Source: a virus. Taken from it: DNA of 64,000 bases. Positions within the stretch are counted from its first letter, which is position 1, and every line of letters begins with the position of its first letter. Positions 15,336 to 56,128 of the stretch are shown one piece after another. The notes beneath the pieces were generated by a model. The model was given only the letters and a program-made list of their open reading frames with translations. It searched no databases and was not told where the DNA came from. Where the stretch lies: the IMG/VR virus record IMGVR_UViG_3300035682_001186, positions 1 through 64,000 of that record, one strand, 5' to 3'. Position numbers and translations under genes: made by a program.

Positions 15336-17029
15336 TATTTACTAATTAGTTTTCCAATTTCTGGCAAATACAAATAATTAATATCACTATTCAGAATAGT
15401 TACAAAAGCATCAACTAAACTTTCTACTAATGGTTGACCAGCTAAATTAAAACTTGTATTCATTACCATTGGAATTTGTGTTCTATTATAAAATGCTTCA
15501 ATCAAACGATAGTAATGTAAATTTTGTGCTTCAGTAACAGTTTGAACACGACATGTATTATCTACATGACATACGGCAGGAATTTCATTTACTTTATCTG
15601 GCCAAACATTAACTGCATACATCATAAATGGACTTGATTTCATTCCAGCCATATCAAACCATGTTGAAGCATGTTCTTCCATAACACTACCAGCAAATGG
15701 TCTAAACCATTCTCTACGTTTAACTTGATTAACAAAATCTTTACCATCTACTCTACGTGGATCAAATAATATTGAACGATTACCTAATGCTCTTGGTCCA
15801 GCTTCCGCGGCCCCTTGAAATAAAGCAACAATATTACCATCATCAATCAATTGTGCTACAGTATCATATGTTACATCTGATACTTTAAGATTTGGTACTT
15901 GTTGTAATAAATTATCTAACTGATCATAGTTTGGATGTACACCAAGATATACACTAGTTAACTCTCTTAATTGTACTTCATTTGAGTGATTATGCCAAGC
16001 ATATTTGGCTAAACCAATAGCAGTTCCACCATCATGTGCAATTGGATCAATATAGAAATTAATATCGGGAAAATGTTTAACATACTTATAATTGGCCACA
16101 CAGTTTAAACCAAATCCACCACTAATAATAATATTACGTTCACCAGTAATATCAATTGCCTTTTCAATAAGAGCAATCATTTGTTCTTCAGTTTGTCTTT
16201 GAATCTTATATGCCAAATTCTTATCAATATCACGACATAATGAAAAATCATTATGCCATTCTTTTGGATCATTAAATCGTTTTAAGTATGGATTATGATT
16301 CTCGTCAATATGTGCACCAGCAGGATATCTAGGAATCAATAAGTTCTTATTACCTTTTCCATTAATAAAGAAATCTGGAATATCTACATCTTCTGTACCA
16401 TATGGACTTAGACCCATAGTTTTACCAGCTTCAATAAATCCAAAACCAAGATAATCTGATACGGCCTCATAGGCTTTAGTAATGGTTACAGTATTATCAA
16501 ACTCTTGTATACCATTATCATAGTACATGGCATTACCATCGCTATAACGCTTGTATACAGCGTTAAACTCATGTGGATATGAACAGTAGTAAATTGATTC
16601 AGTTTCGTATCCAGATGCAATTGGACCATTTTCTCCAATTTGTTCTTGATGTACTGAACCAGCACCATCTACAATTACGGCTGCAGCAGTATCAAAACCA
16701 CTACTATAAAAACTGGCACTAGCATGACCCAAATGATGTAAATGTCCAAGATTTGTTACTTTAACATTTGGACAACTTTTTCTAACCAATGCTGTATATG
16801 GATCTTCTCCAGTCCATGGTAATTGTGGTAATTGTGAATTAGTACCACCAATAATTAACTCATCAACTACATGATTATTCAATACATGAACAATAGCCTT
16901 AAATGGATTACCATCATATTTACTTCTAGATAGTCGTTCTTCTTCTGTATAGTATACTAATTCACCATCAACTACTAATGCCGCTGATCCATTATGTCCT
17001 GGATTAATTGCTAAAATTGTATATCCCAT
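15335..17029 (-). CDS. O-carbamoyltransferase (CmcH/NodU/TobZ family)
   Basis: GHNGSAAL, EEERLSRSK, HHLGHA, VDGAG, GKTMGLSPYG, GGFGLNCVAN, GPRALGNRS, KRREWFRPFA, NTSFN. Confidence 0.95.
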   Translation of the reverse strand: MGYTILAINPGHNGSAALVVDGELVYYTEEERLSRSKYDGNPFKAIVHVLNNHVVDELIIGGTNSQLPQLPWTGEDPYTALVRKSCPNVKVTNLGHLHHLGHASASFYSSGFDTAAAVIVDGAGSVHQEQIGENGPIASGYETESIYYCSYPHEFNAVYKRYSDGNAMYYDNGIQEFDNTVTITKAYEAVSDYLGFGFIEAGKTMGLSPYGTEDVDIPDFFINGKGNKNLLIPRYPAGAHIDENHNPYLKRFNDPKEWHNDFSLCRDIDKNLAYKIQRQTEEQMIALIEKAIDITGERNIIISGGFGLNCVANYKYVKHFPDINFYIDPIAHDGGTAIGLAKYAWHNHSNEVQLRELTSVYLGVHPNYDQLDNLLQQVPNLKVSDVTYDTVAQLIDDGNIVALFQGAAEAGPRALGNRSILFDPRRVDGKDFVNQVKRREWFRPFAGSVMEEHASTWFDMAGMKSSPFMMYAVNVWPDKVNEIPAVCHVDNTCRVQTVTEAQNLHYYRLIEAFYNRTQIPMVMNTSFNLAGQPLVESLVDAFVTILNSDINYLYLPEIGKLISK

Positions 17030-17961
17030 TATCGTACCTTTTTCTCAATATCTGCAACAATAGTATTAAACATATCGTCTAGTTCTTTTGTTGTAAAATT
17101 AATTGTTCCTTCATTTAATCTATTACTTAAAGTGGCATCTAATCCGGCAATACGTATTGGTGTATATTTTCTAACTTGTTGTGTTTCAATGATTTTAAAA
17201 TAATCTGGATAACTAGTATTGATTGGAAATGTACTACCAAAAATTACAGTACCTGGAGTTCCAACTGCACGAGCCATATGTTGACCTACACTATCACATC
17301 CAATAAAATAATCGGCTTCTTGAACCAATGCACCCCATTGTCTAAGATCACATGTATATTTTTGTGATACTGTATCTTGTTTCAATTGAAAATCTGGTTC
17401 ACCAAAGAAAATAGTATTATATCTCATGGCAATTTTCTTAACAAGATAGAGATAATCTTTCTGACTTAAACTACGTGATTCTTCATCAAATACACCTTGA
17501 CGATTATCTATTTTGGCACCGCGACCAAATGGTTGAAAGATTACTGTTTTTTGTTTTTTCTGTGCAGCTTTCAAATCTTCAAGTGTATTCTTTGCTACCA
17601 TAACTTCTTGTTGATTAAATTTAAGAACTGGTATACCTAAATCACTATGATCTTTAGTATTATTAATTTCTCTATCAAATCCTTCTACTAAACTAATCTC
17701 TTGTCTAAAATAAGCTGGACAACGATATGGTTCTGGTGTAATAATTTGATCTGCATTTTTAATTACATTGTCAAATACACCTTTAGTATCAATTCCATAT
17801 GTTCTGTCTTGTAGTTCTGGAATACCCCAATATAAGAAATCCCATGCGGCTACCATAACTGCCCAATCAACATCTGGATTTAATTTACCAAATTTAATAA
17901 GTGCTGGAATTGCTGCAATTGCACGACCAGCACCACCATCAATCCAAAATATCTTTTTCAT
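17029..17961 (-). CDS. GT9-like (heptosyltransferase-like) glycosyltransferase
   Basis: DGGAGRAIAAIPAL N-terminus; FIGCDSVGQHMARAVGTPGTVIFG. Confidence 0.75.
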   Translation of the reverse strand: MKKIFWIDGGAGRAIAAIPALIKFGKLNPDVDWAVMVAAWDFLYWGIPELQDRTYGIDTKGVFDNVIKNADQIITPEPYRCPAYFRQEISLVEGFDREINNTKDHSDLGIPVLKFNQQEVMVAKNTLEDLKAAQKKQKTVIFQPFGRGAKIDNRQGVFDEESRSLSQKDYLYLVKKIAMRYNTIFFGEPDFQLKQDTVSQKYTCDLRQWGALVQEADYFIGCDSVGQHMARAVGTPGTVIFGSTFPINTSYPDYFKIIETQQVRKYTPIRIAGLDATLSNRLNEGTINFTTKELDDMFNTIVADIEKKVR

Positions 17962-27840: not shown

Positions 27841-28518
27841 TTATTCATCTCCTAGTGCGATTGTTTCTGGGGCAAACGGGTACCTGCGTGTTTGAATTGT
27901 TGACGAATTATCAGTAATAATTATAGATGATTGATCGCCAATTGCTGGCGAATTATAAATGATAACATTACTACTAACTGAATCACTTTTAATTCTAAAT
28001 CCTCTCCAACTATCATAGTCTACAAACCAAGGCCAAGTTAATTGTGTTACATATGGTGCCAAAGTTTGCCCACCTACTGTGACACTTACATCTTTACTAT
28101 TTACAATATTTGTTACATTAGATTGATTATTTTTCAACGAAAACACTGAAGTTACATTGTCAAATTGATTTGATATATCATTAAGAACTACATTCAGATT
28201 AGGCGTAATCAAATTACCATAAATTTCTACATTACCGCCATATTGTGTCATTCTAATAGTGCTATTGGCAAATACTTCAATGATAGGTATACCAGATACA
28301 TCATTGACTGAAAATATAGTACCAGTTAAACTATTTGTTATTGACAATAACTGACCTGCTGTTCCACTAAAACTTAACGTTCCATTACTATCTGGAAGAG
28401 TTGTAAGTGTAATATTTTGAGCAGCAAGTGTAGAATTAGCCCCACTAAACACAATAGTTGGATCAGTAGTTTGTCCTATGTTTGGAGTAATTACTATATT
28501 TTTGTCTGAATTTGCCAT
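27841..28518 (-). CDS. Virion structural protein (fibre-associated)
   Basis: MANSDKNIVITPN..., FSVNDVSGIP; in fibre operon. Confidence 0.65.
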   Translation of the reverse strand: MANSDKNIVITPNIGQTTDPTIVFSGANSTLAAQNITLTTLPDSNGTLSFSGTAGQLLSITNSLTGTIFSVNDVSGIPIIEVFANSTIRMTQYGGNVEIYGNLITPNLNVVLNDISNQFDNVTSVFSLKNNQSNVTNIVNSKDVSVTVGGQTLAPYVTQLTWPWFVDYDSWRGFRIKSDSVSSNVIIYNSPAIGDQSSIIITDNSSTIQTRRYPFAPETIALGDE

Positions 28519-28535: not shown

Positions 28536-28573
28536 TATTTATCATATGTATTTATCATATGTATTTATCATAT
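28536..28573 (-). repeat. Three tandem 13-bp units each carrying the late promoter GATAAATA
   Basis: TATTTATCATATG, TATTTATCATATG, TATTTATCATAT on + strand. Confidence 0.85.
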
Positions 28574-29245
28574 TCCATAACGTGATCTTAAGGCTGTAAA
28601 GTTTGTTTGTATCTCTGTAAAACTCAATCCTCTATTATATATTAGCGCAGTTGCAATATCTCCCTGAAGATATTCTGTTGAATATGTTTTTGCAACTTGA
28701 ATTGTAGTTGAGGTTACATTATGTGAAGTTGGAGTATCACTACCAACATTAGTAGTATTTGCCCATACTCTTCTATTGGTCCCATCAAATTGTGCTGTTG
28801 CCATAAACCAAGTTCCCACAGACAATCCTGCATTATTATTTGTAATTGCAAGATCATTATTCCACCAATAATGTGACAAATATCCAAGAGTACTGGTATA
28901 AGTTCTTAATGCATTTGATTGATTATTTGTATCAAATCCACCAATGGACATAATACCTTTACCATCTGTCCAAGATCCAGTAACTCTTACCCAACAAATC
29001 ATAGTATAAGGAGAATTTCCTGTGGGTATTGATGCACTCCCATCACCAGTAAAGTATCCAGTTAAACCTGTTGAAAAATATCCAGAACTGTTCCAAGTTG
29101 GTGAATTAGTTAAAGTTAAATTATTTCCATTACCACTCAGATCAGTCCAAGTTGTACCTGTACCTGGATAACTTCTAATGTTTGCAGCATCCACACACAA
29201 ACTTAGTCCATTGGTTATTATGTAGGGTCCATCATACGCACTCAT
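28568..29245 (-). CDS. LamG/concanavalin-A-like lectin domain virion protein
   Basis: TNGLSLCVDAAN..SYPGTGTTWTDLSGNGN; YNR.L...EI..NF.ALR.RYGI. Confidence 0.82.
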   Translation of the reverse strand: MSAYDGPYIITNGLSLCVDAANIRSYPGTGTTWTDLSGNGNNLTLTNSPTWNSSGYFSTGLTGYFTGDGSASIPTGNSPYTMICWVRVTGSWTDGKGIMSIGGFDTNNQSNALRTYTSTLGYLSHYWWNNDLAITNNNAGLSVGTWFMATAQFDGTNRRVWANTTNVGSDTPTSHNVTSTTIQVAKTYSTEYLQGDIATALIYNRGLSFTEIQTNFTALRSRYGI

Positions 29246-42663: not shown

Positions 42664-45600
42664 TTATTTTATCTTTCTTATTTCATCAATTTGTTTTTGT
42701 TGTTCCTTAACTGCTTCAATTAAGATAGCAATTAATGGCAAATACGAAACTGATAATCCATTTTCATTTTTTGATACCAATTCTGGTAAAATTTTAGCAA
42801 CTTCTTGAGCAATTACTCCATAAGATTTCTTACCCCATTCTTTCCAATTAAAAGAAACTCCAGTAATTTGATTCAAAATAGTTAACGGACTAACAATATT
42901 TTTAATATTTTCTTTCAATGTTCCATCGCTAGTAGAGTTGACTTCTACAGCGTTTAGTTGACCAGTACTAGGATTAAATGTTAATTTACTACTACTTACA
43001 TATATCGTAGCTAAGCTACCAGTAAAAATATTTGAAAGAGCAGGATAAAATGTATTATTATCAACAGTATCAGTAATTATTGATACCCCAGTACCAGTCG
43101 CTCCAGTTAATCCAGTAGCACCAGTTGACCCAATACTACCAACACCACCAGATAATCCAGTGGCACCTGTAGCGCCAGTAAATCCAGTTGATCCATCAAA
43201 TCCAGTAGAACCGTCAAATCCAGTAGCACCCGTACTTCCTATAAATCCAGTAGCCCCCTGTAATCCAGTAGCTCCCTGTAATCCAGTAACACCAGTAGCA
43301 CCTGTTGATCCAGTAAATCCAGTTGATCCATCAAAACCAGTAGCGCCGTCAAATCCAGTTGATCCAGTAAATCCGGTAGCTCCATCAAAACCAGTAGCAC
43401 CAGTAGATCCAATATCACCTTGAACTCCAGTGGCACCGGTAGATCCGTCTAATCCAGTAGATCCTGTGGCTCCAGTAAATCCAGTAGCACCTATGTCGCC
43501 CTGAACTCCAGTAGCACCAGTGGCTCCATCTAATCCAGTAGCACCAATATCACCCTGTAATCCAGTAGCACCAGTAGATCCGTCTAATCCGGTAGCACCT
43601 GTGGCTCCATCTAATCCAGTAGCGCCAGTGGCTCCGTCAAAACCAGTGGCACCTATATCACCCTGAACTCCAGTAGCACCAATATCACCCTGTAATCCAG
43701 TAGCACCAGTGGCTCCGTCAAATCCAGTAGCACCAATATCACCCTGTAATCCAGTAGCACCAGTGGCTCCGTCAAATCCAATTGGTCCAGTGGCCCCATC
43801 AAATCCAGTAGCACCTATGTCACCTTGAATTCCAGTAGCTCCAGTGGCTCCGTCAAATCCGGTAGCACCTATGTCTCCTTGAATTCCAGTAGCGCCAGTT
43901 GATCCATCTAATCCAGTAGCACCAGTAGCGCCATCAAATCCAGTGGCACCTATGTCGCCCTGTAATCCAGTAGCACCTGTGGCTCCGTCAAAACCAGTTG
44001 CCCCAATATCACCTTGAATTCCGGTTGCGCCAGTGGCTCCATCAAAACCAGTAGCGCCAGTGGCACCATCTAATCCAGTAGCACCAGTGGCTCCATCAAA
44101 ACCAGTAGCACCTATATCACCTTGAACTCCAGTTGCGCCAGTTGATCCATCTAGTCCCGTGGCTCCAGTAGAACCAATAAATCCAGTAGCACCTATGTCA
44201 CCTTGAACGCCAGTTGCTCCTGTGGCGCCTGTATATCCAGTAGCACCTGTATATCCAGTTGGACCCACAATAGTTCCAACATTGACCCAAAGTGTACCAT
44301 CATAAACCCATAAATTACCAGTAGCTTGATCTATAACTCCATTTCCAAGTACTGCAGATGGAAATGCAGCATTAAGTGTTGTTTGTGGATTATTAGGAGG
44401 ATCAACGTTTACATTTGGTACTGATCCTATTATGGAAACTGACGTACCTGCTACTCCAGTAGCACCAATATCACCTTGAATTCCAGTGGCACCAGTGGCA
44501 CCGTAACCAGTAGCACCTGTGGCTCCAGTTGATCCATCTAGTCCTGTTGCGCCAGTGGATCCTTCAAAACCAGTAGATCCAGTGGCTCCGCTTCCTGTAG
44601 CACCGATGAATCCAGTGGCTCCGATAAATCCAGTGGCTCCATCTAATCCAGTAGCGCCAGTAAATCCAGTAGCACCTGTACTTCCAGTGGCTCCATCTAA
44701 TCCAGTGGCACCCGTAGAACCAGTAAATCCAGTGGCTCCGTCAAATCCAGTAGCACCTGTACTACCAGTAGCACCTGTAAATCCAGTACTTCCTGTAAAT
44801 CCGGTACTTCCGGTAAATCCAGTACTTCCGGTAAATCCAGTTGATCCAGTAGCACCTGTGGCTCCAGTAGCACCTCTGAATCCAGTTGCACCAGTTGATC
44901 CAGCAGTACCACCACCTCCAGCACCCCAATATAAATTACCTAATCCGTCAGTACTGACTACTAGTCCACTAGCACCACCAGTAATAACTACATTCCCAAT
45001 ATCTCCTAAATTGGCACGAGTATATACTACCAATTGATTTGCCGTAGCAATATTACTACTAGAAATATTTGATGTAACATTACTAGAATCAATATTAGTA
45101 ATGTTTAATGTACTAGTCTCAACATCAAATATAAAATTACTACTACCATCTAATCCGCTTGGTATACTTAAATCAGTCCAACTAGTTCCATTTACACCAC
45201 TGATAATTACGCCGTCTGTTCCAACTATATAATATTCACCACTACCATATATACTATCAATTAAATTACTAGTTGTTCCAGTACTACTAGTAGACCATGA
45301 TGTTGCACCATTGTTACTAGTGATTTGAATTCCATTATCGCCAGCTGATACCAATGTAGGTATAGTTGATACAGTTGCCAACGTAATTGTATTAAGATTT
45401 TCAACAGTTCCACTAATTGATGATGTCCATGTTATACCATCAGAACTGACAATTACTGTACCATTATTTCCAGTTGCAATATAATTGTCACCATCAAATA
45501 CCACGCTATTTAAATTATCAACAACTCCACCATCTTGGATAATCCAATCTATTGCGTCTTCACTTAATAATATTGTACCAGCATTACCAACTACAACATA

Positions 45601-46167
45601 TATACCATTGTCTACATCATAAGCAATACCACGTAAATTTTCTAATACTCCAGTAGCCTGTAAAGTCCAAGTAATAGCATTTAAACTAGTTAATATTGTT
45701 CCATTTTCACCAACCGCAACATATAATCCAGTAATATCAGTATAATATACTCGTAATAAATTTTCTGTTGTTCCGCTTGTTTGTACTGTCCATGTAGTGG
45801 CAATATTACTACTTGTGATAATAGTACCATTATCTCCAACTGCAATAAATCCTAATGGTGTTGGAGTTACTGAATTTATTGGTTGATTAACTGGACTAGT
45901 TTGATTACTGTAATTTATTCCATCTGTACTGTAAAAATATCGTAATGGTGTACCAAATATTACCCATGTACCGCTATTATAAGCAATTGTATCTAGATTA
46001 TTTGTGGCCGCAAATTGAACTGCGCCTGGTGGTGGAGCCGCAGTTCCACCGGATCCTAAACTATATAGTTGAGTAAAGTTTTCATTAATCTTTTCAAACG
46101 CAAGTCTTAGAGGATCGCCATTACCATCGTTTGACGAAGCTCCAATGTTAATAATTTGTTGTGCCAT
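42664..46167 (-). CDS. Collagen-like fibre: gp9/gp10-type anchor, beta-propeller, collagen, S74 chaperone
   Basis: IINIG...[23 protein letters not shown]; AVG.NGTI.TS repeats; GAT/GFD/GDI triplets; [10 protein letters not shown]...GVIAQEV...IEAVKEQQ. Confidence 0.88.
43090..44910. repeat. Collagen-coding tandem repeats
   Basis: Gly-X-Y triplet-coding repeats interrupted by a short domain at ~44270-44450. Confidence 0.9.
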
Positions 46168-46256
46168 GCTTTATCCAGTTATAGTAATATTTATCGTATT
46201 ATATTTAAATTAATCGTCAAAACTAGGGTCCCATGACTTATAACATAAATATTATA

Positions 46257-46574
46257 ATGCTAAAACAACAATCTATCAGACCCATGTGTAAAGAATGTAA
46301 TAAATTACCATCAAGACCAAATGGTCGTAGTGTAAGTGGATATCAGCGATGGCATACTTTATGCAATCATTGTGCAAAATTAAAATATACCAAAAAGAAA
46401 AAAGATTCAAAGTGCAATATATGTAACTTTGAATCAATTGATAGTTGTCAATTATGTTTGATTAATGGAGAAACTATCTGCCAAAATTGTAACGCCCTCA
46501 GATTGAAAAATATCAAAAAGAGGGCGGAATTAACAGTGGATGCCACCATTGATTGGAGTAATATCAGATTGTAA
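46257..46574 (+). CDS. Zn-finger protein, paralogue of 3110-3454 lacking the HNH core
   Basis: RPMCKECNKLP, KKKDSKCNICNF, CQNC, LTVD; likely start 46257, 5 nt after CATAAATA (46244-46251). Confidence 0.7.
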   Translation: MLKQQSIRPMCKECNKLPSRPNGRSVSGYQRWHTLCNHCAKLKYTKKKKDSKCNICNFESIDSCQLCLINGETICQNCNALRLKNIKKRAELTVDATIDWSNIRL

Positions 46575-48038
46575 TTAGTCTAAATCAACAACCCAACCAC
46601 CAGTTTTAGAATCAAAATTAGCCATTAACGTATTACCAGATGCAAATGGAGATGAAACTTTCATAACCGGACGTCCATAATTATCTAATGTAATGCTACC
46701 AGCTTGAACTGTCTTCATACCTAACTGTTGACCAGTTCCACTATTGATAAAGTTAACTTCAATCTCACCATTACCATAAGTTTCATTCATTTGTTTACTT
46801 TCATATTCAGGTTTACGAATATCTTTTGTTGGATAATCAATATCATCATTACGTGACTGATGATCATCAGGATCATAATCTTGATAACCTCTACCACGAC
46901 GACCTTGTTCACCCTTACGCATTGAATGATCAGTATAACTAGAATTTCTAGCTCTAGGTGTCTTTTTATCTGTTGGTGCACCTTGTTGTATTTTTCCACC
47001 ACGTGCTAAGAAATCTTCTACATCACCTTCATTAAGACCAATATATGTCATAAACTTTCTACTATTAAAACGTGAATTATTACTTTCAAAAATCTTACAG
47101 TGACGCTTAGCTAAAATCTTACGATTATTTTCAGGTAATGTTTTGAGAATATCAGCTACTTGACGAAATTTGTTAAGTCTAACACCTTCTGCCAATGCAC
47201 CTTTCTTCAAATGAGCAATAAAAGATTTTAATGTTCCTTCTGGATTACTAGTCTTATATTTCTTGTAGTTTTTTGCAAAATTAGGATGTTTTGGATCCCA
47301 TTTATCATATCCTTCATCACTGTCACTGACAGATTTTTCACGAGTAGAAGAATTCCCTTCACCAGACTCTGACAATTTATCTTTACAATCAGCTACCATT
47401 TGTTTTAATTCGGCACGATCACAATCAGGATGCATTTTACAAATTTCTGCTACAGTTTTTCCATCTTTACACATTTTTTTAATATGTGCCATTGATGGTA
47501 ATTTTCCAGTTTTAGATTTTACTGATTCAAATTGATTGCTACGTGTATTACTATCAGATTCTTCATCGTCTACACCGTTAATATTGTCCCAGTATTCTTC
47601 TGCTTCTTCTGAGCTCAGAAAAATCGCCCCGTTGCGTCGCATCGCATTTGCAACAAAATCATCTTTCTCCATAGACATTGCTTGATTTATAAGCCAACGC
47701 TTCATAGCGCCTTCATCTAAAGTTTGTGAATTATCGTCTTCCATATTTTTATATTCAAACATGACATAATCAGCAAAAATCTTTTCTACAGTTATACCAT
47801 TTTCTCCACTAAAGAACATACCAGCTGGACCACCATCTGTAATTCCAAGTTTATCTTGAATATATGCGGCAGCGGCATCAAGTGCTTCTTCAGCTAAACT
47901 TTCTGGATCTTGATGAGTATCTTCTACATCTTCAGATACTTTCTCTTCAATACTTTCATTTAAATTAATTTTTTTACCTTGATCTACTGACTCAATTAAA
48001 TCTAGCATTGATCTCATACGTGTTTGATTGTCTAACAT
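46575..48038 (-). CDS. Putative internal head protein, multi-module, gp21-processed
   Basis: Shares N-terminus with 48083-48412; repeated (L/M/F)xE-(S/G/T) sites; own GATAAATA (48061-48068); just downstream of capsid gene. Confidence 0.65.
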   Translation of the reverse strand: MLDNQTRMRSMLDLIESVDQGKKINLNESIEEKVSEDVEDTHQDPESLAEEALDAAAAYIQDKLGITDGGPAGMFFSGENGITVEKIFADYVMFEYKNMEDDNSQTLDEGAMKRWLINQAMSMEKDDFVANAMRRNGAIFLSSEEAEEYWDNINGVDDEESDSNTRSNQFESVKSKTGKLPSMAHIKKMCKDGKTVAEICKMHPDCDRAELKQMVADCKDKLSESGEGNSSTREKSVSDSDEGYDKWDPKHPNFAKNYKKYKTSNPEGTLKSFIAHLKKGALAEGVRLNKFRQVADILKTLPENNRKILAKRHCKIFESNNSRFNSRKFMTYIGLNEGDVEDFLARGGKIQQGAPTDKKTPRARNSSYTDHSMRKGEQGRRGRGYQDYDPDDHQSRNDDIDYPTKDIRKPEYESKQMNETYGNGEIEVNFINSGTGQQLGMKTVQAGSITLDNYGRPVMKVSSPFASGNTLMANFDSKTGGWVVDLD

Positions 48039-48082
48039 GTTAGTATCCTATATTATACTGTATTTATCTTTTTTAATAATAT

Positions 48083-48412
48083 TTAAAAATCGTCATTAGG
48101 TGGTGCATCACCATTATGTTGAGCATCAACTTGATGTTCAATATACTCAACAAAAATGTCAAGTACTGTTTCAGCATTTTCGTCACGAAAATATTCATAA
48201 GCAATTTCTTCATCTTCTTCAGATACTTCTAATGCATCTTGAATGTATCTTACTGCTGCACTAAGTGCTTCTTGTGCAAGTTGACGAGGATCAGAACCAC
48301 TATCTTCAGATAATTCTTCACCAATACTTTCATTTAATTTGAGTTTTTTACCTTGATCTACTGATTCAATTAAATTTAACATTGCTCTCATACGTGTTTG
48401 ATTGTCTAACAT
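48083..48412 (-). CDS. Putative internal head protein (acidic), paralogue of N-terminal module of 46575-48038
   Basis: MLDNQTRMR.ML.LIESVDQGKK..LNESI; GATAAATA at 48435-48442. Confidence 0.65.
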   Translation of the reverse strand: MLDNQTRMRAMLNLIESVDQGKKLKLNESIGEELSEDSGSDPRQLAQEALSAAVRYIQDALEVSEEDEEIAYEYFRDENAETVLDIFVEYIEHQVDAQHNGDAPPNDDF

Positions 48413-48459
48413 AGTAGTATCCTATAATATATAATATTTATCTTGATTGATCATATTTG

Positions 48460-48535: not shown

Positions 48536-49324
48536 ATGAACCAATTTAACAATACAAAATATACACGATGGTACTATGGTATCATCCAAAAACGAGCCAT
48601 TTTAGATAAAGATTCTCGTGGTGAAATACATCATATTATCCCACGTAGTATGGGTGGCAATGATTCACCTGAAAATCTTGTCAAATTAACTGGACATGAT
48701 CACGCTTGGTGTCATTGGCTCTTGACTAAAATGACTACTGGATCAGCCAAAGTATCAATGATATATGCCTTTAATATGATGGGTGTCTCTGGAGAACATA
48801 TGGAACGTCAGTCATCATATGCTATTGTCAGAGCGTATGAGAAGAACAGAATAGAGTGGAGTAAGAATCATAGTGAAACTATGAGTGAACAATTTATAAA
48901 TGGTCGAGAAATTTGGAACAAAGGTCGTAAAGAAGATCGTCCTGAAGTTTTAGCCAGAGTAAAAGAAGCGGCTCAGAATAGACCAAAATTAACAGATGAA
49001 AAATTAAAAGAAAAAGTAAGAAAGTCAGTTGACACAATGAAGAAAAATGGTACGGATAAACGATCTCAAGAAACAAGAGATAAGCAACGAGATTCTATGA
49101 TAGGGTTAGTTCGTGGGCCGATGAATGACGTTCATAAGAATAAGATTGCCATATCTTGTCGTAAGCCTAAATCAGAAGGACATGGTGACGCTGTTGCTGC
49201 GGCTAATCTAGGTGTTGTTAGTATTAATAGAAACGATGTCGAGAAAAAAGTCAAACAAGATACACTTCAATCTTGGATAGAACAAGGATGGCAACTTGGT
49301 GGTAGACCACGTAAGAAAAAATAG
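48536..49324 (+). CDS. Free-standing HNH homing endonuclease with NUMOD-like DNA-binding repeats
   Basis: EIHHIIPRSMGGNDSPENLVKLTGHDHAWCHWLL; WNKG and S.ET..K repeats; GWQLG end; opposite strand next to gp23. Confidence 0.88.
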   Translation: MNQFNNTKYTRWYYGIIQKRAILDKDSRGEIHHIIPRSMGGNDSPENLVKLTGHDHAWCHWLLTKMTTGSAKVSMIYAFNMMGVSGEHMERQSSYAIVRAYEKNRIEWSKNHSETMSEQFINGREIWNKGRKEDRPEVLARVKEAAQNRPKLTDEKLKEKVRKSVDTMKKNGTDKRSQETRDKQRDSMIGLVRGPMNDVHKNKIAISCRKPKSEGHGDAVAAANLGVVSINRNDVEKKVKQDTLQSWIEQGWQLGGRPRKKK

Positions 49325-49395: not shown

Positions 49396-50592
49396 TCACT
49401 GAAACGATATATTAGTTACCGCGATCTCACCAACGTAGTCAGCAGCATTACCAAAGCTGGATGCTGTGTTTGTCAATTCCACGTAGCCGTATCTCGTCAT
49501 AAACGAAACGACTGGTTCGAATGTTGACGGATCTAGAACAACACCACTGCTCATCAACGGAATGTATGGGCAATAGAATGCAGCTGCGTCTGTTTCTGAA
49601 GAACCCTTATAACCAACTAGAACTGGTGTTCCACTTGGAGCATATGAGTCAACGAAAACGCGCATTGCGTTGTTCAATGTACCGACTAATTTTGTATTAG
49701 TAGGTGCTTCGAATGTACCTTCTGTAGTACGGGCAAAAGCTGATGTTGTAGCAGACTGAAGAACAGTCAGCATTTCTGAAGAAACAACACACCAGTTACC
49801 AGCGCCACGACGAGTACGTTGGGCGATTAGGTTAGCAACACGGTTAATTAGAACAGCTAAAGCAGCGTGTTCGTCACCAACGTATGTAGCGGTACCAGAA
49901 ACGGTAGCTTGGTTATATGTAAACTCAGTAGCAGCCAATTGACGTAATGAAAGAAGAATTTCTTGGTCGATTTCAGCAGTAATTTCTTGTGCTAAAGCGG
50001 CCATGATTTCGGCTTCAACGTCGATACCATGCATTGATTGTGCGTCTTGTGCAGCTTCGAATGTCCAACGAGCTTGTAACTTACGGCTCTTGGCTTCGAC
50101 AGCTTGACGTAGAATCTGTACAGAGATTGCTTTTCCGCCGTTACCTTCAAGAGTAGCGGTTGGAGCTGCGGTATAACTGTTTGCTGTATTATCGCTAGAC
50201 TTTGTACGTGAATACGCTTGAGCGATCAAGAATGGTGATAGAGCTTCGTCACCAGCCACAACCGAAGTTTGAGCTGCTGAATTGTCTGTCAAGTTTTGAG
50301 CATAGCGAACACGTAGTGTATGAATCTGTCCAACTGGACCAGTCATTGGTTGAACACCAATTAACTCGTTAGCGATAACAGTAGGCATAACACGGCGAAT
50401 AACTGGAAGAATGACACGATTTAGTGTGGCAATATTACCAGCGGTTGTAGTTCCAGCATTACTTTCAGAAAGTAGTTGCTTTTTGGTGTTTTCTAAAATA
50501 ACACCCATTGATGAGCGGCGGACGCCTTTGAGACCTTCAAGGAGGGCTTCTTTGGTTTCATTCCAGCGGCTCTCTAATAGTACTTTTGACAT
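49396..50592 (-). CDS. gp23: Major capsid protein
   Basis: IGVQPMTGPVGQI, AKSRKLQARWTFEAAQD, EITAEIDQEI, IAQRTRRGAGN, FYCPYIPL, FMTRYG. Confidence 0.97.
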   Translation of the reverse strand: MSKVLLESRWNETKEALLEGLKGVRRSSMGVILENTKKQLLSESNAGTTTAGNIATLNRVILPVIRRVMPTVIANELIGVQPMTGPVGQIHTLRVRYAQNLTDNSAAQTSVVAGDEALSPFLIAQAYSRTKSSDNTANSYTAAPTATLEGNGGKAISVQILRQAVEAKSRKLQARWTFEAAQDAQSMHGIDVEAEIMAALAQEITAEIDQEILLSLRQLAATEFTYNQATVSGTATYVGDEHAALAVLINRVANLIAQRTRRGAGNWCVVSSEMLTVLQSATTSAFARTTEGTFEAPTNTKLVGTLNNAMRVFVDSYAPSGTPVLVGYKGSSETDAAAFYCPYIPLMSSGVVLDPSTFEPVVSFMTRYGYVELTNTASSFGNAADYVGEIAVTNISFQ

Positions 50593-50621: not shown

Positions 50622-51725
50622 TTAAAGCCCTGCCAGACGCTTGATATCAATCACGTTATCACGTTCTTGGGTCTCAACTTCTGTTTTCTTGGCAGATTTA
50701 TCACCAGTAATTGCTACACTTTCAGAGATCATTTGTTTTTTAGCAACTGGTCTTTGTTCTGTTAATGTATTCAATACTGCTGGTAGATACTTGTCGAATG
50801 CGCCTTTCAATTTTGGTGTTTGGACGCTTTCTAGTAAGTTCTTCATTACATGGGCTTTGTCTTCATTTAGTGTTCCGAGTAATTCACTCATAGTACGTTC
50901 ACGAAGGTTACTTTCTTTAATAATGCGAACTTCACGGTTTTTACTTTCTACTAAACGTTGTGATTGTTTAGCAGTTTCGATAGATTCAGCTAATTGTTGA
51001 TCTTTTTGATCTAAGATTGCTAGAAGTTTACGTGTCTCTGCTTTTTCGTTCAAGTGTGTTGAACTAAATTCAGCGGCAAATGCTTCAAACAAACGACGAC
51101 CAAATGTGTTTTCATTTGCACTTTGGATGTCTTCTTTCAATTGACTGATTTCGCCTTTTAAATGTGTACTGATTGCTGAACTAACTTTTCTTGCACTTTC
51201 AGCTACAAATTTAGCTTTAAGTGAATCAAGTTGGTGTTTAGCTTCTGCAACTAATTTGACCTTGGCTTCTACTACAGCACGTTTGTCAGTTTCAAATTCG
51301 CCAATTTCACGGGCTAGAGCATTTACTACGAATTGTTCTAGTTTACCACGGGCTTCCATTTGAACTTTACGATCATTACGTAATTCTTTGATTTCTTCGG
51401 CTAGTTTAGTAACCATAAATTCATTGAATTTTTGTACATTTTCACGTAATTTAACTTGTGCTTTGACACGATCTTCATTCATTGCTTGTCTTTCTGTTTG
51501 AAATTCTGTAATTTCACCAGTTAGACCTTCAGTAACCATCTTATCAAGGGCTTCTACCATTACGTTCTTGTCATGCTCATATTTCTGTGCGAATTCCTCT
51601 CGGAGTTCTGAACGAACTTGTTCGCGAGCTTCGTTTAATTTTACTTCCCATGCCTCATTAATGGCTTGGGCTGTATCTTCAGTAACGATTCCGCTTTCAA
51701 GTAATGGTTTGATGGCATCAAACAT
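50622..51725 (-). CDS. gp22: Prohead core scaffold protein
   Basis: Coiled-coil, Glu-rich, many LxE sites; between protease and capsid genes. Confidence 0.88.
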   Translation of the reverse strand: MFDAIKPLLESGIVTEDTAQAINEAWEVKLNEAREQVRSELREEFAQKYEHDKNVMVEALDKMVTEGLTGEITEFQTERQAMNEDRVKAQVKLRENVQKFNEFMVTKLAEEIKELRNDRKVQMEARGKLEQFVVNALAREIGEFETDKRAVVEAKVKLVAEAKHQLDSLKAKFVAESARKVSSAISTHLKGEISQLKEDIQSANENTFGRRLFEAFAAEFSSTHLNEKAETRKLLAILDQKDQQLAESIETAKQSQRLVESKNREVRIIKESNLRERTMSELLGTLNEDKAHVMKNLLESVQTPKLKGAFDKYLPAVLNTLTEQRPVAKKQMISESVAITGDKSAKKTEVETQERDNVIDIKRLAGL

Positions 51726-51737
51726 TGATATCCCCTT

Positions 51738-52379
51738 TTATAATTTCAATTCCTTGATAAGACGAACTACTTCATCTTTCAAGAATTTTTGAACTCTAGC
51801 ATCCTTGTCCAAATTTGTACCTTTTAAGTTTTCTAAAACACGATGGCCATTTTTCATGTTCATCAATGATTCATAAATTGCTTTTGGGTATGCATTTGGA
51901 GCACTGGGTTGTGCCACGATGTCCACAGTAACTATTTCAAAGTCACTGACTTTGCCTGTAGCTTCATCAACGTTACCGCTGCCTCTACTACTAACGCCGA
52001 GTTTGACTCCATTCTCCAACATGGTGGCAGCTAACTGTCCCATGGGAGTTGGAATAATTTTTAATTTACCGAAACCATTAGCGCCATCCATCCACATTTC
52101 TGTAATGATATGACTAACTCTATCTAAATTGATTTTTAAATCATCTGGGTGATCGATTTCACCCAATACTGAGTTACCGCTTCGGATTTGTTCGTTTAAG
52201 GTTACTACGGCTTGTTCAATTTCAGGAACGGGGTAAACACGCTCATTTGCGTTCTTCACCCCACCCTGGATAAAAATTCCTCTCATATAAAGAGATTTTT
52301 TATCACCTTCTTCCTTAACTGATTCGACTATGAGGTTCGCTCTGTCGAATGTTAAGTTCTCTCTAAGATACAAAGCCAT
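51738..52379 (-). CDS. gp21: Prohead protease
   Basis: GIFIQGGVKNANERVY, LGEIDHP, GVSSRGSG, DIVAQPSAPNA. Confidence 0.96.
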   Translation of the reverse strand: MALYLRENLTFDRANLIVESVKEEGDKKSLYMRGIFIQGGVKNANERVYPVPEIEQAVVTLNEQIRSGNSVLGEIDHPDDLKINLDRVSHIITEMWMDGANGFGKLKIIPTPMGQLAATMLENGVKLGVSSRGSGNVDEATGKVSDFEIVTVDIVAQPSAPNAYPKAIYESLMNMKNGHRVLENLKGTNLDKDARVQKFLKDEVVRLIKELKL

Positions 52380-53601: not shown

Positions 53602-53658
53602 GTAGTTCGCGGTGATCAGACCCAACTACTCTAATGCTTATTAGGAGCAATCAGCATG
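53602..53658 (+). promoter_or_regulatory. Structured 5' leader of homing endonuclease gene
   Basis: GTAGTT..GGT-GATCAG-ACC..AACTAC stem, then pairings covering AGGAG and ATG. Confidence 0.55.
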
Positions 53659-54357
53659 ATTATTTATCTAGTAGTCAAAACTCACAATAAAACCGGTTTA
53701 AAATACTTATGTCAGACAATAAGAGATCCATTTAAATATAAAGGATCAGGAACATATTGGAAACGACATCTTAGAGAACATGGCAATTCTCATTCTACTA
53801 TAGTAATTAAAGAATGTTTAACAAAACAAGAACTCAAAGAATGGGGAATGTATTATAGTAAATTATGGAACATTGTTGATGATGTAGATTCATATAACAA
53901 AAAAACATGGGCCAATTTAAAACCGGAAGAAGGAGACGGTGGAGCGTCTGGAAAATATAGTTCATGTAAAAAACAAGAAGTAAAAAATAAAATTTCTAAA
54001 AGTTTAATAAATCTTGGAAATAATCATCCATCTAGAAATAGAACTTCAGAACAAACAAAAAATTTACGTGACAGAATGAGTGGGAATAATAATTTTGCAA
54101 AGAGAAAAGAAATTAGACAAAAAATATCAGAAAATAATCCAATGAAAAGAGAAGATCAAAAAGATAGACAAAGAGGAAGTAAAAATCCAGCTTATAATTC
54201 TACTCTATTTACTTTTAAACACAAAATTACAAATGAAGTCGTGACATACACATGTCATGATTTCTGTAAAATAATTTTATCAGATAACGATAGACCAAAC
54301 ATTTGCAAATTAATAAAAAACGAAGCAAAATCCGTAAAAGGTTGGATATTAATTTAA
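53656..54357 (+). CDS. Free-standing GIY-YIG (Seg-like) homing endonuclease
   Basis: IYLVVKTHNKTGLKYLCQT, YKGSG..W, NLKPEEGDGG; basic NUMOD-like repeats; opposite strand after portal. Confidence 0.8.
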   Translation: MIIYLVVKTHNKTGLKYLCQTIRDPFKYKGSGTYWKRHLREHGNSHSTIVIKECLTKQELKEWGMYYSKLWNIVDDVDSYNKKTWANLKPEEGDGGASGKYSSCKKQEVKNKISKSLINLGNNHPSRNRTSEQTKNLRDRMSGNNNFAKRKEIRQKISENNPMKREDQKDRQRGSKNPAYNSTLFTFKHKITNEVVTYTCHDFCKIILSDNDRPNICKLIKNEAKSVKGWILI

Positions 54358-54358
54358 A

Positions 54359-56128
54359 TTATACCGGAGGGGGAGTTGCCAATGCACCTGGACTGGCAGT
54401 TTGATCATTAGCACCAACTGGAGCAGTAACTTCTGGAGCTATACCTTCTTCTCCTTCACTATCACTTTCAATATTGTCGGCAGTTTCCAAATCACTATCA
54501 ATATCACCAGTACTAATACCAACACTACGTAAATCAGAACCTTTAGCTTCTTGATCTTCTGGCTCAGATTTCTCTTCTTTCCATAATTTCTGATTTTCTT
54601 TGATTTCTTCTTGACTTAATCCCAAGAATCTTTCCATGGCAAATCTAATACTCATATATGGTAAAGCTGCCATAGTAGTAAATGTCTGAACTCTAGATGT
54701 ATCCAATTCTGATTGACGATAACTAGCAAAGTTTTGTGGTGGAGTAAAGTGAATGTCAAACAATCCACTATCAATATTAAATCCTCTCCAACGCATAAAC
54801 AATTTAAACTCTTCATTGAGTTTTTTGCTCATATAACCTTGTAATCGCTCACAATACTTATTGAATCTAAACTCTTGAATCATAGCGGTACCAACACGAC
54901 CATCACTTAATGGTGTTGGATTATCTTCTGGACCAGTTGGCAAGTAGCTACTTGGAACACGTAAACCACGTGCCAATCTATTATTGAAGTAACGTAAGTC
55001 ATCAATCTCACCCAAGTTTTGTCCACCGGGCATAAGTTCTACACTAGATCCACGACCATCGGCTGTTACTGGGAAGAAATAATCTTCATTTGTTGACAAT
55101 GGATTGTAAGTAGCATCAACAATACTTTGACCACCTTGAATACTTGGAATTCTACGTTGATGAATTTCATCTTTAATACGATTGACAAATGCCATAGCCA
55201 TATTACTTGGCATATTACCAACGTCAATCTTAAAAATTCTACGTTCTGGTGCTCGTTGAACACGATAGATCAGAACCGCATCTTCTAACAATTCTTTTTG
55301 TTTATAAACTTTGAAAATATTTTCTAATACACTTTGACCAAATGGCCAATAGCGATCTAGACCTTCTGTCAATGATAAGTGTACAACATGTTTGGCATCA
55401 ATTGCCATTTCATTAACACCTAAACTAAAACGTGTACCTGTTGTACCATATGGTTCATTTGGTACAGTATATGAATATGGTGCACTATATCCAGCAGTTG
55501 GTGGTTGTGCTTGAAAATCTGTACTGGTCTTTTCTGCTACCGTTAGATTTTGTAAGTTTGGATTGATATCTTTAACTACATATTGTTCTGGTAATTTACC
55601 TGCACTTTCGTTTACAATAACTTTAACTACTTTAGTTGGATCAACCCAAAACAATTTGAATGTTTCTGGATCACGTAGAAATACTTGATCACCATATTTT
55701 ACAGTGTTTCTAAATATTTTGAATGCTCTGACATCCATTTCATTTAATTTACACCATTGTTGTAATTGTTTACCAATCAACTCTACTTCAGTTTGTGTTG
55801 GTTCACCATTAAAGTGTATATCAAATGGAGTTTTGTTATGTTCATTTAACTGTGTAGAAAATTCACTTAAAATATCTAAACATCCATTGATTTCTGGATC
55901 ACAATCCATCATTTCATATTGATTATATCGTTCAATACGATTTGGATGACCAGTATATACTTCTGGTAAACGACTTTGATAGTTTCTAAAGGCAAAATTA
56001 TTATCCCAACCACCTGTTGGTGATTGATTCATACCAGCTCCGCCATTCCAAGAACCTTCGTTACTGTTGGCTCCTGAAATTGGACTTAGTGATCCGTGTT
56101 TATTAGTAAATTTTTTCTTGTATGACAT
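54359..56128 (-). CDS. gp20: Portal protein
   Basis: LLEDAVLIYRVQRAPERRIFKIDVGNMP, EDYFFP, LMPGGQNLGEIDD, LRVPSSYL, EFRF.K; GATAAATA at 56149-56156. Confidence 0.96.
   Translation of the reverse strand: MSYKKKFTNKHGSLSPISGANSNEGSWNGGAGMNQSPTGGWDNNFAFRNYQSRLPEVYTGHPNRIERYNQYEMMDCDPEINGCLDILSEFSTQLNEHNKTPFDIHFNGEPTQTEVELIGKQLQQWCKLNEMDVRAFKIFRNTVKYGDQVFLRDPETFKLFWVDPTKVVKVIVNESAGKLPEQYVVKDINPNLQNLTVAEKTSTDFQAQPPTAGYSAPYSYTVPNEPYGTTGTRFSLGVNEMAIDAKHVVHLSLTEGLDRYWPFGQSVLENIFKVYKQKELLEDAVLIYRVQRAPERRIFKIDVGNMPSNMAMAFVNRIKDEIHQRRIPSIQGGQSIVDATYNPLSTNEDYFFPVTADGRGSSVELMPGGQNLGEIDDLRYFNNRLARGLRVPSSYLPTGPEDNPTPLSDGRVGTAMIQEFRFNKYCERLQGYMSKKLNEEFKLFMRWRGFNIDSGLFDIHFTPPQNFASYRQSELDTSRVQTFTTMAALPYMSIRFAMERFLGLSQEEIKENQKLWKEEKSEPEDQEAKGSDLRSVGISTGDIDSDLETADNIESDSEGEEGIAPEVTAPVGANDQTASPGALATPPPV

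Follow-up and report, generated by a model that had tools for sequence, protein, structure and literature searches.

A candidate phage polyprotein of small modules joined by prohead protease motifs, encoded downstream of the capsid gene of a giant freshwater phage

A leader and seven small modules

The viral contig IMGVR_UViG_3300035682_001186 (109 kb) is estimated by CheckV to be 29% complete, which implies a genome of ~370 kb; we analysed its first 64 kb (64,000 nucleotides, hereafter ‘the window’). The source is an uncultured giant freshwater phage, and its genes place it in the Rak2-like group, not with the phiKZ-like phages: its closest cultured phages are those of the Rak2-like Asteriusvirus group, and the gene order is as in PBECO4. 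Here we describe two neighbouring genes located 3′ of the capsid gene, which encode proteins of 487 and 109 amino acids (aa), with the focus on the longer of the two. The 487-aa protein consists of a 28-residue leader and seven modules (M1 to M7, see Table 1), a motif of the kind cut by T4 gp21-type prohead proteases is present at every joint, and whole modules are gained, lost and replaced at these motifs among its relatives. The protein is encoded among late or virion genes, with the capsid gene adjacent, a late-promoter-like motif in front and a fibre gene downstream.

The predicted products are 53–82 residues long (5.9–9.5 kDa), with M1 and M2 being acidic (isoelectric point, pI, of about 4.1–4.2) and M3 to M5 basic (pI 8.9–10.7). 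The leader, which reads MLDNQTRMR..LIE/..LNE/, is near-invariant in 25 proteins that differ in their downstream parts, with at least 7 different modules standing immediately behind it. The 487-aa protein falls into no family of Pfam or PHROGs and gave no usable match in the ESM Atlas, and Pfam detected neither hub or effector domains of the polyvalent type nor an embedded peptidase in the protein and ten of its relatives. At the start of M6, a match to SutA-RBD (PF20661) stays below threshold (E 4.6e-4, 19.9 bits against a cut-off of 29.3, 14 residues aligned); relative P0009 gives the same sub-threshold match.

Upstream of both genes we find the same arrangement of GATAAATA, ~13 nucleotides (nt), TAGGATACTA and the ATG, and the DNA of the two cassettes is near-identical as far as the end of the leader, diverging afterwards. 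The element GATAAATA behaves like a late promoter, since it occurs 17 times against 6 expected and is mostly located 20–30 nt upstream of the starts of structural genes, including those of the portal and the fibre; it is one base off the T4 late consensus TATAAATA. An earlier note on this DNA had proposed a duplicated cassette in which the two proteins share their first ~30 aa. While the promoter, the Shine-Dalgarno region and the leader are indeed common to both genes, the paralogy extends further, over residues 1–95 of the 487-aa protein (57% identity), and the 109-aa protein is therefore a leader with M1 alone behind it. Orthologues of the 109-aa protein are present in locus L003, discussed below, and as P0127 and P0227–P0231. 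Elsewhere in the window, at 28536–28569 (-), three tandem 13-nt units ATATGATAAATAC, each containing GATAAATA, precede the gene that starts at 28518 by a short distance and reach into the end of the gene 28568–29245.

Table 1. Coordinates of the two-gene cassette, the modules of the 487-aa protein and the head genes in the window. The slash marks the predicted cut.
Feature	Position	Strand	Remarks
109-aa gene	48083..48412	(-)	Paralogue; leader and acidic module M1 only
487-aa gene	46575-48038	(-)	Leader and seven modules
Late-promoter-like GATAAATA, 109-aa gene	48435..48442	(-)	
Late-promoter-like GATAAATA, 487-aa gene	48061..48068	(-)	
Ribosome-binding region TAGGATACTA, 109-aa gene	48415..48424	(-)	AGGA 7 nt before ATG
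Ribosome-binding region TAGGATACTA, 487-aa gene	48041..48050	(-)	
Leader, aa 1-28	47955..48038	(-)	Amphipathic helix; sites LIE16/S and LNE28/S
M1, aa 29-109	47712..47954	(-)	Acidic helical, pI 4.1, charge -18; ends LDE109/G
M2, aa 110-171	47526..47711	(-)	Met/Trp helical with acidic linker; ends QFE171/S
M3, aa 172-224	47367..47525	(-)	Four-Cys, three-helix, helix-turn-helix (HTH)-like; ends LSE224/S
M4, aa 225-284	47187..47366	(-)	Aromatic/basic; ends LAE284/G
M5, aa 285-337	47028..47186	(-)	Basic helical, pI 10.7; ends LNE337/G; internal IFE318/S
M6, aa 338-419	46782..47027	(-)	Disordered; SutA-like motif at start; ends MNE419/T
M7, aa 420-487	46578..46781	(-)	C-terminal beta module, predicted small SH3/Tudor-like barrel
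Major capsid protein, Gp23 family	49396..50592	(-)	PF07068 1.1e-96; 63% identity to PBECO4 capsid protein
Helical protein, scaffold position	50622..51725	(-)	Lies between the genes for protease and capsid protein; same in T4 and PBECO4
T4 gp21-type prohead protease, presumed processing enzyme	51738..52379	(-)	phrog_207 2.8e-60
Portal	54359-56128		Next to the locus

The prohead protease motif is enriched and specific

The eight sites that the earlier note had listed, two in the leader and one at the end of each of M1 to M6, are all present; a ninth, inside M5, goes beyond that list. Likewise, the matching site it had ascribed to the capsid protein was found: the gp23-family protein bears LLSE43/S, which aligns with MLTE/S of PBECO4. 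Other head proteins of this phage start alike (LLE/S, LLE/SG, LIVE/SV), and the N-terminus of the prohead protease itself is LIVE19/SV. The motif [LIM]xE[GSAT] occurs 8 times in the 487-aa protein as compared to 1.5 by shuffling, a count equalled in 0 of 10,000 shuffles. Among the 43 open reading frames (ORFs) of the window, strong enrichment is seen only in the 487-aa protein (z 5.6) and in the protein at the scaffold position (10 sites, z 6.0). The other 45 kb of the contig encode no further member of the polyprotein family. Two more proteins display mild enrichment and may be additional protease substrates: one of 830 aa in that remaining part of the contig, outside the window (G000 69882-72374 (+); 6 sites against 1.8, z 3.4) and one of 310 aa (window 17029-17961 (-); 3 sites against 0.7, z 3.0).

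The specificity of the motif was examined on 81 cluster representatives at 50% identity or less, where [LIM]xE[GSAT] is found at an observed-to-expected ratio of 2.61 (z 19.5). The ratio is 0.58 with Asp, 1.00 with Gln and 1.27 with Lys at P1, 0.76 or 1.05 when the hydrophobic residue is placed at P2 or P4 instead, and 0.83 for the reversed motif; the enrichment is specific to motifs in which Glu occupies P1, a hydrophobic residue P3 and a small one P1′. According to the published rule, T4 gp21 cuts after Glu in L/I-x-E (PMC9026906). The P1/P3 specificity is what this rule predicts, which argues against a mere effect of composition or of helix capping.

This bears directly on the possibility that the protein is never cut, the motif marking helix ends or linkers, or recombination joints of a mosaic family, in an intact, beads-on-a-string late protein that binds DNA or is associated with the virion. 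Gly and Ser are common helix C-caps, several of the sites are located at helix ends, and distant relatives conserve adjacency to the fibre gene rather than to head genes. However, a generic cap or linker does not explain why Glu is demanded together with the P3 register, with Asp being depleted and Gln neutral; within the window the enrichment is shared only with the scaffold-position protein; and Glu is kept at every joint through the module exchanges described below. We consider an uncut protein improbable. If the protein is cut, precise predictions of the cleavage positions result from the module joints.

Whole modules turn over at the joints

The 487-aa protein has 246 metagenomic relatives, with the leader being present on 25 proteins; gene contexts of the relatives were taken from viral-contig loci. 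Among the 25 leader-bearing relatives the module borders coincide with xxE sites, and it is whole modules that are gained, lost and replaced. At least five different inserts are found directly after LNE28. The helical part of M2 is missing from P0002, P0004-7, P0010-11 and L003, and M6 is missing from P0003, P0005, P0006, P0011 and L003, the deletion running exactly from LNE to MNE. In another case an M3 deletion runs exactly from QFE to LSE, and in P0014 and P0015 M2 is joined straight to M5. M7 is C-terminal in 17 of the 25 leader-bearing proteins, and alternative C-terminal modules occur as well.

The sites at the joints are conserved in 15/16, 16/16, 8/9, 10/10, 15/15, 13/13 and about 10/10 homologues (leader sites E16 and E28 in 15/16 and 16/16, respectively, and LAE284 in 15/15), whereas of the non-joint sites LAE50 is retained in 0/15 and MFE95 in 2/16. 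The expectation that LxE would be conserved at the module boundaries is borne out. An all-against-all comparison of 120 family proteins places 306 break-points of homology exactly on [LIVMF]xE as compared to 76 expected, with related pairs not being independent; end-points of single-query high-scoring segment pairs were too fuzzy for this purpose owing to the acidic linkers. As to the earlier claim that the modules are independent units, the insertions and deletions exactly at the joints and the occurrence of M3 and M4 in quite different proteins speak for it, but the module order is constant within the close family, where modules vary by presence or absence, and strict reshuffling is seen only for M3 and M4.

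A close comparison is offered by L003, the head genes of which are near-identical to those of the window (capsid protein 98%, protease 96%, scaffold 94% identity). Its counterpart of the 487-aa protein has 400 aa: a Gly-zipper module is added, and the M2 helices and M6 are gone. In the parts that are shared, M3 to M5 are about 93–100% identical, M1 about 45%, and M7 is a 33% variant. By this comparison, the turnover of the polyprotein mosaic is much faster than the change of the head genes.

The Gly-zipper-like hydrophobic module GGALTGGAIGSMVGGLPGAAIGGWLG stands directly after LNE28 in many leader-bearing relatives; the window copy is without it. Its carriers are P0002, P0003, P0005, P0010-12, P0014-16, P0122 and P0142, as well as L003 (5111-6313). 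The module could be a membrane-active peptide.

The pattern of conservation also bears on an assembly-only role, in which the chain would enter the prohead and be cut, but the pieces would act as scaffold, spacer or propeptide and be expelled before or during packaging, with at most M7 being retained and nothing delivered. The site density equals that of the scaffold-position protein; like many core proteins, M1, M2 and a neighbouring protein of 275 aa are strongly acidic; and the leader and M7 form the most constant pair around a variable middle, resembling the propeptide-bearing head proteins of SPN3US (PMC10052503). In T4, core fragments mostly exit the head (PMC9026906). The strongest counter-argument is that it is the middle modules, M3 to M5, that are best conserved between the window and L003, and M3 is 75–92% identical across otherwise unrelated proteins. 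Furthermore, a separate gene in the scaffold position is already present, and the modules are predicted to fold as separate small domains with no coiled-coil scaffold among them. We regard an assembly-only role as unlikely, although it is to be taken seriously for the reason given below.

Separate islands in the predicted structure

In keeping with the earlier reading, the chain does not fold as one domain in the AlphaFold model computed on the family alignment: the predicted template modelling score (pTM) is 0.24, hence no global fold, and separate islands are seen on low-confidence linkers. M2, M3, M4, M5 and M7 are islands with a predicted local distance difference test (pLDDT) score of 70–85, and stretches below 50 comprise residues 21-43, 94-111, 157-178, 224-243 and 346-421. 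Because these low-confidence stretches fall there, E28, E109, E171, E224 and E419 are located in or at the edge of linkers; E337 is at the start of a helix. M6 scores 30–35. The model as a whole shows small separate domains plus a beta module and is not a coiled coil, and it is the neighbouring protein 50622-51725 that holds the scaffold position.

Modelled alone, M3 forms three helices (pLDDT 79), and its top Foldseek matches are all HTH domains, but with E>1; Pfam DUF433 weakly matches 4 of 53 M3 members (best E 8.7e-6). M7 is modelled as five strands with pLDDT 75–85, and VIA-align gives Z 4.5–5.2 to chromo, Tudor and integrase C-terminal-domain barrels, which is within noise. Foldseek found no match at E <= 0.001 for either the whole model or M3, and a wide VIA-align search gave Z <= 5.7, within the stated noise of the tool.

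M3 defines a wider superfamily

M3 is found at 75–92% identity in over 100 proteins, which range in length from 62 to more than 1200 residues, and a profile search of 1.84 billion proteins gave 95 cluster representatives. The result is an uncharacterised superfamily, of about 95 clusters for M3 alone, that bears no Pfam or PHROG name. Pfam searches with 53 M3 representatives returned scattered single stray matches, some of them on likely false positives (P0199, P0221), and these were not used. M3 has four invariant Cys and one invariant His. The Cys residues are spaced C-x9-C ... C-x11-C on helices 1–3, with the His in between; distant members swap two Cys for Leu/Ala, e.g. ..MLKMHPDADKDKL.., and metal binding or disulfides are therefore not universal.

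M3-bearing proteins use at least five other N-terminal leaders, many of them resembling T4 targeting sequences in being a short amphipathic stretch that ends in hydrophobic-x-E, such as MDFKSLLSQLDQLNE followed by A. A hydrophobic-x-E motif stands within a few residues after M3 in 52 of 67 occurrences, and the modules that come next are of many different kinds. M4, too, is found in other contexts (L038-L042 and P0141). In the 192-aa protein P0141, M4 (YEKWDPKHPHFVKNYKK..) precedes a fragment of a 2-oxoglutarate-Fe(II) oxygenase (PF13640, 1e-06); thus, at least one module of the set is found fused to an enzyme domain.

Many of the larger M3 polyproteins end in ..DWKKLAGIK or ..DWRKLSGIK. Similar C-termini are found in the scaffold-position proteins (window 50622-51725; L043 9395-10510), with ..IDIKRLAGL in the window and ..LDVLSGINKK in PBECO4, and a 160-aa gene upstream of the M3 polyproteins ends alike (..LLKILAGK..). 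This likeness may reflect a shared short core-incorporation motif, and with it a shared way into the core.

The larger M3 relatives come from related giant phages: the sheath protein of L010 is 68% identical to that of the window, and CheckV estimates ~350 kb. In L010 (4768-7638) and ~25 other loci (L005-L037) they are part of a conserved block of a 160-aa gene (MTKKL..ELFELP), a 207-209-aa gene (MKSLKHYI..), the M3-bearing polyprotein (735-1371 aa) and a fibre gene beginning MAQQNIDFGTFPDDP. In L010 the block comes after the sheath and tube genes; since the window contig terminates inside its sheath gene (2-2959), a second polyprotein may be encoded immediately past that end. Searches for the protease and Gp23 on the contigs of five larger relatives (15–29% complete) found nothing, and as the Pfam control was also silent they are uninformative.

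These loci provide the case for a tail or fibre accessory protein, for example a chaperone of the fibre or a part of a whisker, co-transcribed with the following fibre gene. In at least 14 loci an M3-bearing gene is located directly upstream of a fibre gene beginning MAQQNIDFG.., and the 1167-aa collagen-like fibre of the window (42664-46167), which comes after the 487-aa gene, has the same N-terminus. However, the head core is indicated by the leader, by the pattern of sites and by the relatives’ scaffold-like C-termini, Pfam and PHROGs show no similarity to fibre chaperones, and in the window a convergent gene stands between the 487-aa gene and the fibre gene. A role in the fibre therefore strikes us as very improbable.

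Genes around the cassette

The prohead protease of the window shares 48% identity with its PBECO4 counterpart, the ‘prohead core scaffolding protein and protease’. Similarity between the 275-aa acidic protein of the window and PBECO4 gp521 was not detected. PBECO4 gp517, which occupies the same position after the capsid gene as the 487-aa protein, was considered as its counterpart and rejected: it is unrelated and carries no such leader.

On the 3′ side of the capsid gene follow an HNH homing endonuclease gene on the other strand, the 109-aa gene and the 487-aa gene. The HNH gene (48536-49324 (+), phrog_655 1.1e-35) separates the capsid gene from the cassette, and L003 keeps a 69%-identical one at the same spot; L038 has a different, nuclease-like 266-aa gene there, and PBECO4 an annotated GIY-YIG nuclease. 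This position behind the capsid gene seems to be a hot spot of homing endonucleases. Two paralogous 233-aa ORFs with similar N-termini, 53656-54357 (+) (MIIYLVVKTHNKTGLKYL..) and G000 80264-80965 (+) (MTIFLYKKTHLVTGLNYL..), gave no PHROG match at E <= 0.001 and may represent additional homing-endonuclease-like insertions in the run of structural genes.

Beyond the 487-aa gene are a convergent Cys-rich 113-aa gene and then the collagen-like fibre gene. The 113-aa ORF (46233-46574 (+)) abuts the stop codon of the 487-aa gene, has several CxxC pairs and is zinc-ribbon-like; it has no family match, and a 92%-identical copy is found at the same place in L003.

A probable precursor for the prohead core

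With confidence somewhat above even, we favour the reading that the 487-aa protein is a late precursor for the prohead core that is cut into its modules. The 28-residue amphipathic leader, like the T4 capsid-targeting sequence, would bring the chain into the scaffolding core. After assembly of the shell, the protease would cut after Glu at (L/I/M/Q)-x-E before G/S/T/A, with most of the sites being located in flexible linkers, thereby taking off the leader and releasing seven mini-proteins of about the size of mature T4 IPI. The basic M3 to M5, including the HTH-like M3, would most likely remain with the packaged DNA and exit together with it when the phage infects a cell; the acidic M1 and M2 would possibly be expelled, or serve as counter-ions or DNA mimics. 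The 109-aa neighbour would be a single-module version of the same device. Every joint being a cleavage site, modules could be added, dropped or exchanged by recombination without harm to their neighbours.

The anatomy, the site counts, the module turnover at the joints, the late-promoter motif and the neighbouring head genes are observed. Targeting, cleavage, retention, ejection and an effector role are all steps that we infer, and head targeting and gp21-type processing are the ones that are well supported by inference. The label of an anti-defence or host-takeover cassette, which the earlier note had attached, has no direct support.

Several observations weigh against this precursor reading. 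The leader has no sequence similarity to the T4 targeting sequences. In the model, E16 is located within the leader helix (residues 3-19) and E284 inside a helix (270-287) that runs from M4 into M5. Both the 487-aa gene and its distant relatives directly precede a fibre gene whose N-terminus is conserved, an arrangement that could point to another location in the virion. The modules match no known anti-defence or effector family in Pfam and PHROGs (PADLOC was not searched), and tblastn with the 487-aa protein and a 956-aa relative found no match in 50,697 cultured phage records. Finally, most fragments of the multiply cut core proteins and propeptides of T4 and SPN3US exit the head (PMC9026906, PMC10052503); retention of the modules can therefore not be assumed, and this is what makes the assembly-only role a serious rival to the precursor reading.

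A broader proposal is possible but doubtful: the prohead protease motif might serve as a universal joint in giant freshwater phages, a leader-loaded cocktail of mini-proteins being co-injected with the DNA and M3 acting as a common injected factor on host or phage nucleic acid or on transcription. Such a co-injected cocktail would be the phage counterpart of viral polyproteins and neuropeptide precursors.

Comparison with known systems

The closest known systems include the T-even internal proteins (Ips). In T4, a leader directs these proteins into the core and is removed at L/I-x-E; the Ips are ejected, and the three act as inhibitors of distinct GmrSD enzymes (PMC9026906, PMC3012670, PMC12373910). 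Ip1-3 share only the leader (PMC12373910). Ip1, Ip2, Ip3 and Alt are likewise late genes served by a gp21-type protease, with a leader ending in L/I-x-E placed on otherwise unrelated proteins; small predicted mature products, a locus that is hypervariable between close relatives and, with the 109-aa gene, a single-module form add to the likeness. While the T-even phages have one cargo per gene, here several modules share one ORF with the protease motif at every joint, and the leader has 28 residues and two sites. Searches of Pfam and PHROGs, and tblastn against the 50,697 phage records, detected no homology to T4 IPI, IPII, IPIII, Alt or the targeting sequence. If the favoured reading is true, the T4 capsid-targeting/gp21 paradigm would extend beyond a single cargo per gene to polyproteins of a plug-in kind, which would explain how large phages diversify the cargo delivered into the cell. 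A design rule is suggested as well, in which one construct loads several small proteins into T4-type capsids.

SPN3US, phiKZ and 201phi2-1 are likewise giant phages in which a gp21-related protease cuts after Glu, with several cuts per head protein (PMC10052503, PMC9026906), and the large protein mass inside the head can be counted as a further likeness. SPN3US head proteins carry N-terminal propeptides of 111–254 residues that are cut several times (PMC10052503). In these phages, however, the repeated cuts fall in an N-terminal propeptide, most of which is removed, and one mature domain stays, whereas here the stretches between the predicted cuts are strongly conserved, are predicted to fold on their own and are exchanged as modules from protein to protein. 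T4 gp22, gp67 and gp68 share the inferred prohead-core location and many L/I-x-E sites per chain; unlike these, the 487-aa protein is not in the scaffold position, has no coiled coil, is predicted to contain beta and HTH-like domains, and varies in content between near-identical phages.

Polyvalent proteins combine 2 to 15 distinct domains per polypeptide, mosaic between relatives (Iyer et al. 2017, PMC5512222), and delivery with the DNA and proteolytic release of the domains have been proposed for them (PMC5512222). The 487-aa protein, with its seven modules, likewise unites unrelated domains in one late chain of virion context and undergoes mosaic exchange. Polyvalent proteins are, however, large chains whose domains are mainly enzymatic or DNA-binding, often with an embedded peptidase (a zincin-like metallopeptidase or a C-terminal assemblin-like one), as compared to modules of 50–80 residues with no recognisable enzyme, for which the cuts would come in trans from the prohead protease.

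At the DNA level, mobile promoter cassettes mediate gene shuffling in T4-type genomes (PMC2839356), and the T-even ip locus is described as polymorphic (Repoila et al. 1994, as cited in PMC12373910). As in these cases, a repeated unit of promoter, ribosome-binding site and leader precedes neighbouring variable genes; here, however, the coding leader and the first module belong to the repeat as well, and extra exchange points are found at the protease motifs inside the ORF. A literature search, incomplete in coverage, found no published description of prohead-protease-jointed polyproteins. What differs from the known systems is the combination: small non-enzymatic modules, the motif of a protease acting in trans at every joint, and exchange at these joints.

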